From a virus (taxonomy: Duplodnaviria; Heunggongvirae; Uroviricota; Caudoviricetes), in the IMG/VR virus record IMGVR_UViG_2671180846_000020: 29,281 nt of DNA; one strand, 5' to 3'. The notes beneath the pieces are model-generated. The model searched no databases, was not told the origin of the DNA, and was given only the letters and a program-made list of their open reading frames with translations. Below, one piece after another: positions 1-5,450 of the stretch. Every line of letters begins with the position of its first letter. The first letter of the stretch is position 1. Position numbers and translations under genes: made by a program.

Positions 1-230
1 TGTCACTTAAGCGTATGGTCAACCTGACAACCCGGTGTCCTCAACGGGGAAGGAATAACCCCGCCATACTTACCGCCGCGCCATTTTGCGGGTTGCCACA
101 ACCGGAAGCGCACGGTCGAATTAAATTTAACGACACCGTACAGTGAGACGAACTTCGCCGTGCGCTTTCGTGTTGTGTGCCTGCTTTTAACCACGTCAGG
201 CGAGGTGGTATCCTTAAAATCACCACAGTT

Positions 231-806
231 TTAAGGATTCATTAAGCAATGTCGCAACCACCAATAAATCCGCTTAAGAACATGAAAATTGATTACTGGT
301 ATAAAGCGCTTACAGTTGTTGGCGCTGCGTTGTTTGTCTTTAATGGAACGTCTTTTTTTGACAGATATCCCGTTGTTCCATTGGGTTTTTTGTCCTCCGG
401 CATCTTTTTTATTGGTTTGGGGGAGTGGATTAATCACCCTCTCATAGTGAGATTTATTGGTCCTGGAGTTTGGACTCGTGGATATAATCGTTCTTCGTGC
501 GCACTCGGTATCATCTTCGACATACTTGGTTGTTTCCTGATTGTTACAGGAGTCGTCAAGTTCTTCTGATGTAAAACCGCAAATGGGGCACGTAACGGGA
601 ATTTTGAAAAGCGTTTCTCCGGGTTCCAGAACAAAATTTTCTGCGGTCTGATTTTGCTTCTCATATTTGTGCTCCGCGTCATTGTGAGAGCACATTCTTA
701 TTCTGAGTGCCTGTTTAAACTCACTGAAGCTGAGAGCTTCTTCGCCTTCGGCAAGGCCTTCGAAGTATTCTTCGTAAGCCTTTTCCATGATTGTGTTGAA
801 ATCCAT
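231..806 (-). CDS. hypothetical leftward early protein (YdaG-like N-terminus), possibly extended by read-through
   Basis: Start MDFNTIMEKAYEEYFEG at 806 with AGGTGA SD 5 nt upstream, immediately after the stop of the upstream 51-aa gene (operon-like packing). The N-terminal ~90 aa are acidic and protein-like; the C-terminal part is K/N/R-rich and is antisense to the 3-TM ORF, so the true 3' end is uncertain. Confidence 0.4.
   Translation of the reverse strand: MDFNTIMEKAYEEYFEGLAEGEEALSFSEFKQALRIRMCSHNDAEHKYEKQNQTAENFVLEPGETLFKIPVTCPICGFTSEELDDSCNNQETTKYVEDDTECARRTIISTSPNSRTNKSHYERVINPLPQTNKKDAGGQKTQWNNGISVKKRRSIKDKQRSANNCKRFIPVINFHVLKRIYWWLRHCLMNP
249..569 (+). CDS. small putative membrane protein (three predicted TM helices)
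   Basis: ORF of 106 aa with three hydrophobic stretches of about 18-20 residues separated by charged loops; AAGGA Shine-Dalgarno about 10 nt upstream of the ATG. It overlaps a minus-strand ORF antisense, so only one of the two may be real in the overlap. Confidence 0.4.
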   Translation: MSQPPINPLKNMKIDYWYKALTVVGAALFVFNGTSFFDRYPVVPLGFLSSGIFFIGLGEWINHPLIVRFIGPGVWTRGYNRSSCALGIIFDILGCFLIVTGVVKFF

Positions 807-807
807 A

Positions 808-963
808 TCACTCACCTGAGTTTCTTTCCAGCCAGCGACGGGCACCATTTTCGGTTTTAAACGTTTTGCTTTTGGTATACGTCATCGCGGTGAACGTGCC
901 GTCCTGGTTGGGGAACACGCCACATACCAGAGATTCGCTGTTGCCAAGATCGATAGTATCCAT
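808..963 (-). CDS. small hypothetical protein, 51 aa (Rac YdaF-like by size and position)
   Basis: ATG at 963 (MDTIDLGNSESLVCGVFPNQDGTFTAMTYTKSKTFKTENGARRWLERNSGE) preceded by a GGGGA/GAGG SD; the stop abuts the next leftward start at 806. The YdaF assignment is from memory of size and synteny, not a search. Confidence 0.45.
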   Translation of the reverse strand: MDTIDLGNSESLVCGVFPNQDGTFTAMTYTKSKTFKTENGARRWLERNSGE

Positions 964-1078
964 GCTGACCTCATTTCCCCTTAACGCCGGGGTAGCGGAA
1001 CTGTTTGCTGAGAACACCGTGCGGTGTCTTGATGGAGGTAATTTAGTTTTCTCATTATTTTTCGTCAAGGTTTTTTGA

Positions 1079-1091
1079 TGAGAAAACTCAA
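1079..1091. promoter_or_regulatory. putative left operator half-site pair (TGAGAAAACTCA)
   Basis: Inverted arms TGAG/CTCA around AAAA; nearly the same motif recurs at 1614-1627 on the other side of the repressor gene, an OL/OR-like arrangement. Confidence 0.4.
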
Positions 1092-1155
1092 GTGTTGGCG
1101 CAAGATAAAGCCAATACATTGAAATGTAAGGCTTTAAAATTTTGTGAAGGGATGA

Positions 1156-1563
1156 TTATTGATGCTTGTTGCGTTTGCGAGCCTCTAATAGCTCGGTGAA
1201 CAGGCGATTAAAATTCTCAACGCGGGCGCGGAGTTCGCTGAGTTGTGCTTGTTGCTCTGATTTAGGAAGTGCGCGATACAAACGCAGCATCTCTAACTCA
1301 TCTTCCGATAAGTCTAAGGCACTATCGAGTGAAACAGGGGGAGCTGGTGTTTTGTCCTCGTCGCCAAACAGTATCCAAGTTGGTGAACATTGCAATACCT
1401 CGGCGAGGCGATGCAAATTTTGCCCGCGCGGGGCTGTATGGTCACTTTCCCATAATGAAATTGATGAGCCAGATACGCCAGCAGCTTTGCTTAAACCGTT
1501 TTGACTTAAGCCTACCTGCTTACGTCTTTCTCTAATGCGTTGACCTAAAGTTTTCTCGTTCAT
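1156..1563 (-). CDS. phage repressor, XRE-family HTH, no S24 peptidase domain (RacR-like)
   Basis: N-terminal HTH-like segment (TLGQRIRERRKQVGLSQNGLSKAAGVSGSSISLWE) in a protein of only 135-152 aa; sits divergent to a Cro-like gene. Start taken at the internal Met (1563); the ORF track allows a start at 1614. Confidence 0.7.
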   Translation of the reverse strand: MNEKTLGQRIRERRKQVGLSQNGLSKAAGVSGSSISLWESDHTAPRGQNLHRLAEVLQCSPTWILFGDEDKTPAPPVSLDSALDLSEDELEMLRLYRALPKSEQQAQLSELRARVENFNRLFTELLEARKRNKHQ

Positions 1564-1640
1564 ATTTAGATATCTTAATAACCCTTGACTTGAGATTCCT
1601 TGAGTGATTAGCATTGAGAAAACTCAATATTGGAGGTGCG
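1564..1640. promoter_or_regulatory. divergent promoter/operator region between repressor and Cro-like gene
   Basis: TTGACT -35-like hexamer, repeated TTGAG half-sites, the inverted repeat TTGAGAAAACTCAA at 1614-1627, then a GGAGGTG SD before the ATG at 1641. Confidence 0.5.
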
Positions 1641-1868
1641 ATGTTTAAATCAGACGTAATTAATTTTTACGGTACGAAAGCCAAAGTAGCGAAAGCTGCT
1701 GGCGTTGACCCATCTGCTGTTTCTCAATGGCAAGAGCTGGTTCCTGAAGGTCGCGCGATGCGTCTACAGGAGGCATCTGGCGGCGAGCTTCTGTATGATC
1801 CCAAGGTTTATGACGAATATCGTAAGACGAAGCGGGCGGGGCGGTTGAACAATGAAAATCACTCCTGA
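1641..1868 (+). CDS. Cro-like / YdaS-family HTH regulator
   Basis: 75-aa protein with the motif KAKVAKAAGVDPSAVSQWQ typical of Cro/YdaS-type small DNA-binding proteins; divergent from the repressor and first gene of the rightward operon. Confidence 0.65.
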   Translation: MFKSDVINFYGTKAKVAKAAGVDPSAVSQWQELVPEGRAMRLQEASGGELLYDPKVYDEYRKTKRAGRLNNENHS

Positions 1869-3779: not shown

Positions 3780-5450
3780 AATGTCCCCAGACAATTCTCT
3801 GGGGGATTTTTCATGATCAAAGAGACTGTTACGATGAGTCATAAGGAACTCCACCGACTTCAGATTATTCAGGAGTCAATTAATCGACATATTACTCAGG
3901 AACAAGCTGCGGCACGCATTGGCATTTCTATTCGGCAGGTTAAACGTCTGGTGCAACGGTATAGAAATGAAGGGCCTTCTGGTCTGGTTTCCCACCGACG
4001 TGGAAAGCGTCCTAATAATTCCTTTTCTACTGAATTCAGAGCAACAGTAATTTCACTCCTCAAAGGCCGTTACGCTGATTTTGGACCTACGTTTGCGTGC
4101 GAAAAATTGCGCGAGATACACGGTTTATCTTTATCCGTTGAAACTCTCAGAAAGTGGATGATAGAAGAGGGGTTATGGCGTGAACGCCGTCGTAAAATTG
4201 CCCGTATATATCAACGCCGCATGCGACGACCATCTTACGGTGAACTGATCCAGATTGATGGCTCACCTCATGACTGGTTTGAAAATCGAGGCCCCAGATG
4301 TACACTGATCGTTTTCATTGATGATGCCACCAGTGCGTTGATGGCGTTGCGTTTTGTGCCTGCTGAAACAACCCGGGCTTACATGGAAACCCTCCGGGGT
4401 TACCTTAATGATCATGGCGTACCGCTCGCTCTCTACTCTGATAGACACAGTATATTCAGGGTAAATAACCCAGAGCGGGAAGGTGAGCTGACCCAGTTCA
4501 CTCGTGCGATAAAGACACTGGGCATCGAGCCAATCCATGCCAACAGCCCGCAGGCAAAAGGGCGGGTAGAGCGCGCCAATCAGACACTACAGGACAGGCT
4601 GGTCAAAGAAATGCGGCTTCAGAATATCAGTGATATTGAAACAGCAAATGCATGGTTGCCGACCTTTATTGAAGCCTATAACAACCGGTTCGCTACGTCG
4701 CCTCGTACTACTGATAATGCTCATCTTGATGTGCACCATTCTGAAGAGGAACTGGGTTATATCTTCAGCCTACAGGCGAAGCGCGTTCTGTCTAAAAATC
4801 TCACTTTCCAGTACAAAAGCAGTGCGTTTCAGGTACGCAGTGAGGGCCGGGGATATCGACTTAGGCATTCGGTTGTTACTGTATGTGAGAACTTTGACGG
4901 TGAAATTAACGTTCTGTATGACGGGAAAGCGCTGGGCTGGGAAAAGTATGTTGATGGCCCGGAGCCTATACCACTGGATGATGAAAAGAGTGTCCATGAA
5001 CGAGTGGATAATGCCCGTATTGATTTACGCTCAAAATACTATGTTAAATCTAAAGCTGACCATCCCTGGCTTACGCGCCGAACGCAAAGTCATCAGCAAG
5101 TTAAGCCCCCGAAGTTACCTAAAAAGAAGCCTGATCCCGATAAAATAGATTGAAACCAAGATCGATTCGGTTGAGTGCATATCCATTCATAGGGTAGATT
5201 CTTAAGTCGCGTTTCTGATGTTCATTTTCGGGTGGTTTGTTACTTGTTTTACCGGGGATATGCCAGAAACGCGCTGAGTCAGTCTGGGCGGTGCGCGTAA
5301 TGAGGCGTTATGGTAAATAGCCTATGCTAATGTCCGCTAAGAGCAAGAAGCGGAAGTTGGCAGTTTTGTGGACTGTCCCCACAAAAGTGACTACAGAAAT
5401 AGTTGCAATTCATAATTGATCATGGGTTGTCAGTTAAACTCGTGGCGATT
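3780..5450 (+). mobile_element. insertion sequence carrying a single DDE transposase (IS481/ISNCY-like); ends not resolved
   Basis: One 446-aa transposase gene with no phage role sits between the replication genes and flxA. I could not identify terminal inverted repeats or a target-site duplication by eye, so the boundaries are approximate. Confidence 0.45.
3813..5153 (+). CDS. DDE transposase, integrase-core (rve) type with N-terminal HTH
   Basis: N-terminal HTH (ITQEQAAARIGISIRQVKRLVQRY) and a D-D-E catalytic pattern (LIQIDGSPHDW ... LALYSDRHSIF ... QAKGRVERANQTLQDR) with the basic residue after E typical of the retroviral-integrase fold. Confidence 0.85.
   Translation: MIKETVTMSHKELHRLQIIQESINRHITQEQAAARIGISIRQVKRLVQRYRNEGPSGLVSHRRGKRPNNSFSTEFRATVISLLKGRYADFGPTFACEKLREIHGLSLSVETLRKWMIEEGLWRERRRKIARIYQRRMRRPSYGELIQIDGSPHDWFENRGPRCTLIVFIDDATSALMALRFVPAETTRAYMETLRGYLNDHGVPLALYSDRHSIFRVNNPEREGELTQFTRAIKTLGIEPIHANSPQAKGRVERANQTLQDRLVKEMRLQNISDIETANAWLPTFIEAYNNRFATSPRTTDNAHLDVHHSEEELGYIFSLQAKRVLSKNLTFQYKSSAFQVRSEGRGYRLRHSVVTVCENFDGEINVLYDGKALGWEKYVDGPEPIPLDDEKSVHERVDNARIDLRSKYYVKSKADHPWLTRRTQSHQQVKPPKLPKKKPDPDKID

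Follow-up and report, generated by a model that had tools for sequence, protein, structure and literature searches.

A membrane-protein gene embedded antisense in the early operon of temperate phages, opposite a frame that appears to be kept free of stops

Introduction

When two long open reading frames (ORFs) lie exactly opposite each other, which of them is the gene? The question is raised by a locus in the IMG/VR virus record IMGVR_UViG_2671180846_000020, the whole 29,281-nucleotide (nt) stretch of which is referred to below as the window. A plus-strand ORF at 249-569 (106 codons, ATG start) is contained wholly within a minus-strand ORF that starts with an ATG at 806, encodes 191 amino acids and ends with a stop codon at 231-233; the listed open frame on that strand spans 231-848. 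The triplets of both frames start at coordinates divisible by three, so the two are codon-aligned in antisense, and position 3 of each plus codon faces position 1 of a minus codon. A preliminary description, made from the sequence alone, had reported this antisense overlap, and the ORF list bears it out. It had also argued that one sequence cannot settle the coding strand, and here, too, we agree: when the codons of a single plus sequence were resampled synonymously, the antisense frame was open with a probability of 0.12-0.17, and public annotation is split.

Depending on the genome, PGAP gives the minus ORF, the plus ORF, or only a ydfB pseudogene. The annotators of phage HannyBb call the minus ORF, and PHROGs contains only that ORF, as phrog_35040. 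This family is the same minus ORF as called in phage genomes, and the window ORF matches it over its full length (residues 1-191, E 2.3e-140). The ORF pair is not described in the literature that we searched on ydfB/ydfC, the protein accessions, phrog_35040, mEp390 and antisense overlapping genes. The best reading of the comparison presented below is that both strands code, the plus strand for a membrane protein and the minus strand for an operon cistron.

Results

Homologues of the plus-strand product, collected by tblastn and protein searches, keep a constant length of ca. 100-115 amino acids while identity falls from 98% to ca. 30%. They occur in Yersinia, Herminiimonas, Reinekea, Pantoea, phage mEp390, Burkholderia phage Bcep176 and many metagenome-assembled genomes (MAGs), and a profile search revealed 481 clusters at 50% identity. 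The motifs DYWYKA and G.GEW.NHP are invariant in the family (IDYWYKA and GLGEWINHP in the window). Between the window and a 58%-identical homologue (locus L009), substitutions number 38, 23 and 55 at plus codon positions 1, 2 and 3, respectively, and in close pairs all differences are silent in the plus frame yet alter the minus-strand amino acid. In at least 12 distant homologues, with GC contents of 0.28-0.50, the codon-aligned antisense frame contains 3-17 stops; homologues with a broken antisense frame are co-directional with their neighbours, in contexts that are not phage-like. The preliminary description had looked to homologous loci with one frame broken and the other intact to decide which strand codes. 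The distant homologues are such loci, and since their plus frame is intact while the minus frame is broken, the plus gene is real. We conclude from these comparisons that the plus ORF is under purifying selection and is a genuine, conserved gene for a three-helix membrane protein beside immunity genes.

The topology proposed earlier for this protein, with three membrane-spanning helices, and its position next to a prophage repressor are supported by structure prediction, hydropathy and gene context. Helices are predicted at residues 17-32, 42-62 and 85-105 (AlphaFold2, predicted local distance difference test score (pLDDT) of 83; hydropathy), and in the model helices 2 and 3 are separated by a beta hairpin. 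The gene adjoins cI/cro-type genes in every phage lineage examined. Scans of Pfam, PHROGs, NCBIfam and PADLOC with the plus protein returned zero matches; the fold search gave no significant BFVD match and only generic helical bundles from PDB, so that none of these six resources linked the protein, by sequence or by fold, to a known exclusion or defence family. Longer family members carry no informative fused domain, the sole match being one weak hit to PsbP_2. The protein is probably a prophage accessory protein; the superinfection-exclusion or division-inhibitor role suggested in the preliminary description would be a guess. The window carries a minority allele in this protein, I66 (position 445), K being found in 73 of 84 related loci (HPLKVRF). 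In Desulfocapsaceae MAGs (L041, L045 and L046), distant homologues of the membrane gene are accompanied by a separate, convergent and non-overlapping CPSCG ORF 180-295 nt downstream; this may represent the same two genes without the overlap, or may be due to chance.

The part of the minus ORF that lies just past the plus stop codon encodes a short leader, referred to here as type A, with the consensus G-E-x-L/I-F/C-x-I-P-x-x-C-P-I/V-C-G-F, which ends at 573. In the window, CPICGF is encoded at 573-590 on the minus strand, and there is an internal in-frame ATG at 693-695. Five lineages carry type-A leaders: the window type, two E. coli/Escherichia variants, the 58% type and a Yersinia 51% type. 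Pairwise differences among them number 68, 58 and 108 at minus codon positions 1, 2 and 3, and codons that differ by a single nucleotide are synonymous or nonsynonymous in a ratio of 56:21. The switches occur mostly at the minus third position (TGC/TGT, CCC/CCT/CCG/CCA, GGT/GGA/GGC). A related leader, P-L-Y-D-K-C-P-x-C-G-C/H, found in six further lineages including a Roseateles prophage, gave 60/50/132 and 80:15 in the same counts, while the unrelated type-B leader of mEp390 and its relatives, M.YEFFERL..PGSV.ID....V.L.GW.L, gave 295/281/415 and 138:66. Such patterns indicate that the leaders are under purifying selection on the minus strand. CP(I/V/K/S/A/C)CG is invariant across 11 lineages, its codons changing synonymously. 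A third ligand is present in one subgroup (CPxCG-C/H), the window having F at that position. With the Cys residues of the downstream tail not being conserved, there is no sign of a second zinc knuckle. When the leader peptides were searched with tblastn against GenBank phages, only mEp390 itself was found. Any protein function of the minus product would probably sit in this conserved N-terminal module.

In every lineage with a type-A or type-B leader, the minus frame continues through the membrane gene. To determine how often stops would be expected there, codons whose reverse complement is a stop were counted in the last 87 plus codons of 14 lineages, whose plus proteins are less than 70% identical to each other (the minus start codons outside the window are inferred). 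TTA was used in 0 of 33 TTR codons, CTA in 0 of 115 CTN codons and TCA in 0 of 26 TCN codons, i.e., 0 of 174 overall. Approximately 51 antisense stops were expected and 0 were observed (binomial P of 9e-12 for TTA, 5e-10 for CTA and 9e-6 for TCA, calculated without a tree-aware correction). As an internal control, A-ending codons were counted in the same codon sets, and made up 94/499 (19%) at other four-fold sites and 50/81 (62%) of AAR/GAR/CAR codons. In flanking ORFs of the same loci, TTA accounted for 116/216 (54%), CTA for 83/487 (17%) and TCA for 126/350 (36%) of the corresponding sets. Leucine columns swap among CTT, CTC, CTG and TTG, never to an A-ending codon. General avoidance of rare codons was considered as a cause and rejected, AGA, ATA and GGA being freely used. 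The few antisense stops that are present fall at plus codons 4-19, which is the distal end of the minus ORF, whose own stop typically lies 15-36 nt beyond the plus start. No codons other than TTA, CTA and TCA give a stop when read from the opposite strand, so their absence means that the minus frame is held open. While a single sequence cannot exclude chance, the comparison across lineages does, because none of the ca. 51 expected stops was found in the 14 lineages. We therefore conclude, from codon usage in these alignments, that in temperate-phage lineages with a leader the minus frame is held open by selection acting through synonymous codon choice in the plus gene. On the same type of evidence, the minus ORF is a cistron of the early operon whose frame continues antisense across the whole membrane gene. 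The preliminary description had taken one strand to code and the other to be lysine- and asparagine-rich junk, and this framing was wrong: the broken minus frames of distant homologues prove the plus gene, but within the temperate-phage clade the minus frame has a conserved leader under purifying selection and appears to be kept open by selection.

The amino acid sequence of the tail behaves differently. Codons at invariant Gly and Pro columns of the plus protein take all four third bases (for example, GGA 3, GGT 3, GGC 5 and GGG 3), and because these bases vary, the minus residue varies, too. Overlap tests gave the same picture, with purifying selection on the plus frame and a minus frame that is free of stops and without amino acid constraint. 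The sequence of the tail is, by these measures, unconstrained. Residues 80-191 are basic and hydrophilic (isoelectric point of 9.7, grand average of hydropathy of -1.15, 21 Lys and Arg residues, 34 Asn, Ser, Thr or Gln residues). AlphaFold2 pLDDT is below 50 for residues 39-191 of the minus product, with a shallow alignment, and the tail is predicted to be disordered.

The origin of the minus ORF became apparent from its operon. Window positions 1-1700 match, with 100% identity, a prophage of E. coli O26 RM10386, where the gene order is exonuclease, ydfD, dicB, a ydfB pseudogene ('missing C-terminus'), ydfA, a helix-turn-helix (HTH) repressor, a Cro/CI regulator and a YdaT-family gene; the locus is an early-left region of the immunity/dicBF type in a Qin-like prophage of E. 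coli. The canonical dicBF operon consists of ydfA-ydfB-ydfC, a long untranslated region with dicF, and then dicB-ydfD (PMC5069750). The gene for the DicF small RNA (Rfam, 76.7 bits; L001 2919-2970) is found just outside the window, 31-82 nt leftward of its first base, and window positions 1 to ca. 190 correspond to the untranslated stretch upstream of dicF. A sub-threshold Rfam match resembling STnc100 was seen between dicF and dicB. The position of a promoter-like site upstream of ydfA (Table 1) fits the published layout of the operon (PMC5069750).

Compared with the canonical Qin prophage of E. coli W, the window is homologous at 1 to ca. 190 and rightward from ca. 709; the ca. 520 base pairs in between (ca. 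190-708) substitute for the 3' end of ydfB and for ydfC, and bring in the plus membrane gene and the CPxCG leader. Canonical YdfB (42 amino acids) is MDFDTIMEKAYEEYFEGLAEGEEALSFSEFKQAL-SSSAKSNG*. The window keeps residues 1-34, 33 of 34 being identical (D4N), and then continues RIRMCSHNDAEHKYEKQNQTAENFVLEPGETLFKIPVTCPICGFTS; codons 35-42 and the stop are replaced at a joint at ca. 705-709. Residues 1-34 match phrog_2061 (YdfB) with E 1.2e-20. With the native C-terminus SSSAKSNG and its stop absent, the minus ORF is not a member of the YdfB family. The preliminary description had taken the minus ORF to begin as a genuine small gene packed against an upstream 51-amino-acid gene, and this is confirmed by the ydfB head, whose ATG follows the end of ydfA (51 amino acids) by 1 nt; a Shine-Dalgarno sequence, AGGTGA, was noted by eye at 812-817. 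It had further suggested that a short gene related to Rac ydaG lost its stop and reads through. The loss of the stop is real; the gene is Qin ydfB, a paralogue of Rac ydaG, and since homology ends at ca. 705-709, the stop was lost by replacement of the module rather than by mutation. A point mutation at 672-674, proposed as the site of the missing stop, was rejected, as homology to ydfB does not extend to these positions; ca. 678-680, where the stop of canonical ydfB would be expected, is likewise inside non-homologous sequence. The window allele N4 (position 797) is a minority allele, D being present in 83 of 84 related loci. In another E. coli sequence (P0082), the same 34-residue head is fused to an unrelated continuation of 94 residues. 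The 5' end of ydfB seems, from these sequences, to be a recurrent recombination joint.

Table 1. Coordinates of the features of the locus in the window
Feature	Positions	Strand	Evidence
Three-helix membrane-protein gene, embedded antisense in the early-left operon	249..569	+	Homologues, codon-position bias, antisense stops in distant relatives, AlphaFold2
Chimeric 191-codon cistron: ydfB codons 1-34, CPxCG leader, antisense tail	231..806	-	ORF and translation, PGAP WP_000344958.1 in some genomes, phrog_35040
ydfB 5' remnant, 34 codons, D4N	705..806	-	Alignment to E. coli W Qin, translations, PGAP pseudogene call, phrog_2061
Type-A leader module	570..704	-	Conserved in 5 lineages, mostly synonymous differences
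Tail of minus ORF, antisense to membrane gene	231..569	-	Stop-free in 14 lineages, amino acids not conserved, predicted disorder
ydfA (DUF1391), cistron upstream of minus ORF	808..963	-	Pfam PF07151 E 8.8e-28, PGAP
Conserved block and hairpin, left boundary/5' cassette of variable cargo slot	171..240	unstranded	Conserved in five lineages
Promoter-like site TTGACG-17-TAAATT, candidate early-left (dicB-type) promoter, upstream of ydfA	1040..1068	-	Consensus scan only

Of 5426 complete E. coli genomes, 806 carry the replacement module, 785 of them in a copy that is at least 99% identical, and phage HannyBb, an E. coli phage deposited as a complete genome, has the same arrangement. In all phage lineages examined, the module adjoins immunity genes, with the minus ORF in the direction of the operon and the plus gene against it. 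Roseateles, mEp390 and several IMG/VR phages carry it between cro and a cII-like gene; elsewhere it lies just downstream of a cI-type repressor, or after ydfA in dicBF-type operons. Junctions of the minus ORF with neighbouring minus-strand cistrons are often tight (gaps of -8 to 29 nt). Toxin-antitoxin pairs were seen between the repressor and the two-strand module at two loci, a HigB toxin with an HTH protein (L016 1639-2303) and PaaA2 with ParE (L017 1752-2231). A tRNA gene (Rfam, 41.8 bits; L009 2795-2875) lies on the operon strand directly beside the module in the 58% lineage.

Variation within E. coli was followed in two samples. The first was collected with a sequence anchor at 191-212, outside both ORFs, and contained 50 loci with the membrane gene. 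Both ORFs were intact in 44, while three had a stop in the minus frame, two had a truncated plus ORF, and one had a frameshift in both. Single-nucleotide polymorphisms (SNPs) in the overlap of these loci numbered 8, 8 and 14 at plus positions 1, 2 and 3. In the second sample, selected with the plus protein, SNPs numbered 5, 4 and 15, and synonymous to nonsynonymous counts were 13:11 in the plus frame and 5:19 in the minus frame. The signal within the species is consistent with partly relaxed selection in cryptic prophages.

The anchor belongs to a block (171-240) that is kept across five lineages and consists of TTGTGTGCCTG..CAGGCGAGGTGGTATCCT followed by a hairpin at 210-238, which is predicted in four. 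The 3' arm of the hairpin includes the AAGGA (233-237) that precedes the plus ORF, and the stop codon of the minus ORF falls inside the hairpin as well. The folding z-scores of this upstream element are unremarkable, and no Rfam family was found within 170-248. TGgTATCCT at 206-214 is a possible extended -10 element; in a consensus scan, neither a plus-strand promoter ahead of position 249 nor a terminator separating the two convergent frames was detected. At least 120 viral contigs contain an exact copy of the anchor, and the membrane gene follows it in only 50 of 114 usable loci. At least 64 of the 114 have other plus-strand cargo genes ca. 35-40 nt downstream, with hairpins of their own (TATCCT../..AGGA) whose inner stems covary. 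The block looks like a portable 5' cassette, perhaps a promoter and/or a leader that sequesters the Shine-Dalgarno sequence, of a hypervariable cargo slot. In four loci with the same slot (L255, L285, L326 and L339), a 66-amino-acid zinc-ribbon ORF (MNTIKFSCPECGG...) is spanned by a codon-aligned minus ORF of 99-118 amino acids, and some zinc-ribbon alleles have a plus-strand nonsense codon at codon 14 while the minus ORF is still open. A two-strand test on the zinc-ribbon cargo was uninterpretable, the SNP counts being confounded by indels.

Discussion

An early transcript that crosses a gene embedded antisense would otherwise expose ca. 320 nt of untranslated RNA, and translating across the insert would keep it covered by ribosomes. 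Such cover could shield it against Rho-dependent termination (polarity), against attack by RNase and against duplex formation with the opposing mRNA, and the protected transcript would allow expression of distal early genes, dicF/dicB here and cII-like genes elsewhere. Rho acts on untranslated nascent RNA (PMC12360218, PMC11551753). Over the overlap, C exceeds G in the minus-strand RNA (C:G ratio of up to 2.0), and G accounts for only 14-15% of the bases in 78-nt windows; RNA of this composition is the kind of substrate on which Rho acts. The tail may therefore be a translated bridge in which the transit of ribosomes, and not a folded tail, is under selection, a view to which we give somewhat less than even weight. 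More tentatively, we propose that temperate phages with a gene of the lysogeny type placed antisense in an early operon shape the synonymous codons of the embedded gene (no TTA, CTA or TCA) so that the operon strand is translated from end to end, and that this bridge, with its swappable leader and sequence-free tail, guards against Rho and polarity.

Several observations weigh against two selected strands or against the bridge. Within E. coli both ORFs are broken at similar rates (plus 3/50, minus 4/50), and the signal is weak, synonymous and nonsynonymous changes in the anchor sample being 11/19 in the plus frame and 7/23 in the minus frame. The window copy possibly resides in a defective prophage, and PGAP labels ydfB a pseudogene. 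The 14 lineages used to count stops are not fully independent, and the baseline from flanking ORFs is crude and may include spurious ORFs. Other cargo genes of the slot are overlapped by the minus ORF over only 23-83 nt at their 3' ends, leaving ca. 170-250 nt of antisense untranslated, and the dicBF operon already tolerates a long untranslated stretch around dicF (PMC5069750); from the two together it follows that a translated bridge is not a general requirement in this type of operon. Finally, ribosome transit alone does not explain purifying selection on the leaders.

The main rival is that the minus product is functional and the two ORFs form a bifunctional antisense pair. A basic, disordered tail would then be needed, for instance to bind nucleic acid or membrane or to act as a spacer. 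Only its composition and length would be constrained, and any gene for a hydrophobic protein supplies both automatically when read in antisense. Stops are strongly selected against over the full length of the tail, the leaders are conserved, the cistron is packed like an ordinary operon gene and the tail is uniformly hydrophilic and basic, all as this explanation would have it, and the fact that bridging is not universal among the other cargo of the slot weakens an explanation at the RNA level. We nevertheless consider it unlikely, as amino acid conservation is absent even opposite invariant plus residues, the same tail stands behind two leader types, A and B, that are unrelated, no fold is predicted, no family match other than its own PHROG was obtained, and the second half of the zinc ribbon is not conserved. 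The lack of conserved sequence and fold would also suit an accident, in which only the plus strand codes and the minus ORF is read-through of a truncated ydfB pseudogene. The PGAP label agrees with this, among antisense frames the codon-aligned one is open by chance most often (the resampling probability given above is for one sequence), and within E. coli the minus frame evolves at a ratio of nonsynonymous to synonymous rates (dN/dS) of ca. 1. What makes an accident improbable is the complete lack of the expected stops in diverged lineages with internal controls, the mainly synonymous changes on the minus strand in the CPxCG and PGSV..GW.L leaders, and the 3-17 stops in homologues of similar GC content that lack such leaders.

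Whether the window copy is itself a decaying relic was assessed independently of the other explanations: the module may be under selection on both strands in active phages while the fusion seen here is a recombination scar in a cryptic Qin-like prophage, with neither ORF now under selection of any consequence. The mosaic joint at ca. 705-709, where the native start of the leader was lost or demoted, the nonsense and frameshift variants of both ORFs in E. coli and the weak signal within the species would fit, and so would an insertion sequence (IS)-type transposase fragment nearby. This fragment, annotated in the identical record as an IS1202-like ISEsa1 element (L001 6813-7700, window positions ca. 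3813-4700), lies a few kb to the right, after a DUF977 gene, and suggests that the prophage is disrupted. A relic is, however, hard to reconcile with the number of E. coli genomes that carry the module nearly unchanged, with the 44 of 50 loci that keep both ORFs in a sample chosen on neither, with the in-frame fusion of ydfB to the leader, and with the same arrangement in HannyBb; on balance we regard it as rather doubtful. That only the minus ORF codes, the plus ORF being its shadow, has next to no probability. Annotators of HannyBb and of mEp390 (gp39), as well as PHROGs, call the minus ORF alone, but the plus protein is conserved to ca. 30% identity, with invariant motifs and saturated synonymous sites. 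The minus ORF as the sole gene is rejected by the peak of substitutions at plus codon position 3 and by the minus frames of many homologues, which are full of stops.

The arrangement can be grouped with the antisense overlapping genes, a class that is contested. The examples from E. coli O157:H7 (ano; the three overlapping genes of PMC9927249; PMC5960689) are alike in that an antisense ORF of protein size is present and annotation retains one of the two. Here the support is comparative, through stop avoidance in 14 diverged lineages, rather than from expression; a whole 106-codon gene is overlapped, and the overlapping ORF is the longer one, lies in an operon, and has no amino acid constraint in its overlapped part. 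Compared with the Qin dicBF operon of E. coli K-12/W, the window has the same dicA-like repressor, cro/dicC-like and ydaT-like genes to the right, ydfA and 34 codons of ydfB, and DicF and dicB/ydfD to the left, whereas the 42- and 72-amino-acid proteins encoded after ydfA in Qin are replaced by the 191-codon chimera.

In phage lambda, the gap between cro and cII (nutR/tR1) contains the Rho-dependent terminator tR1, at which the early transcript, untranslated there, ends in the absence of antitermination by N. In mEp390-type phages and many IMG/VR phages, it is exactly this cro-cII interval that the module occupies, and the proposed benefit is likewise escape from Rho, although here the escape would come from translation through the gap and not from an antiterminator. 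Morons near immunity genes, such as rexAB of lambda and sieB of P22 and lambda, resemble the plus gene in being small membrane genes beside a repressor, with an upstream cassette of their own and an orientation independent of the early operon. The plus gene differs from them in being embedded antisense within a cistron that we read as translated, and in having no similarity to known exclusion or defence families. Overprinting in small viral genomes places a new frame over an older gene, the older frame being constrained and the newer product tending to disorder. In the present case the frames are antiparallel, the arrangement is found in large genomes, those of temperate double-stranded DNA phages, for which space is not limiting, and the tail is shared by two unrelated leaders.

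In bacteria and phages, the status of long antisense overlapping genes is disputed, since the evidence usually comes from a single genome, and an antisense frame kept stop-free across many temperate phages is rare. The comparative signal described here is unusually clean, with classical purifying selection on one frame and maintenance of an ORF without sequence conservation on the other, and homologues without an opposing cistron provide natural negative controls. An open minus frame under selection in many temperate phages explains why public annotation disagrees on the gene: PGAP, phage annotators and PHROGs give three mutually incompatible annotations of the locus across at least 806 E. coli genomes, and the membrane-protein family, which has no Pfam entry, is often missed. 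If the proposal is true, a gene would be under a selective constraint that serves translation of the opposite strand and not its own protein sequence, which would be a candidate mechanism by which phages tolerate genes inserted against the direction of the early operon.

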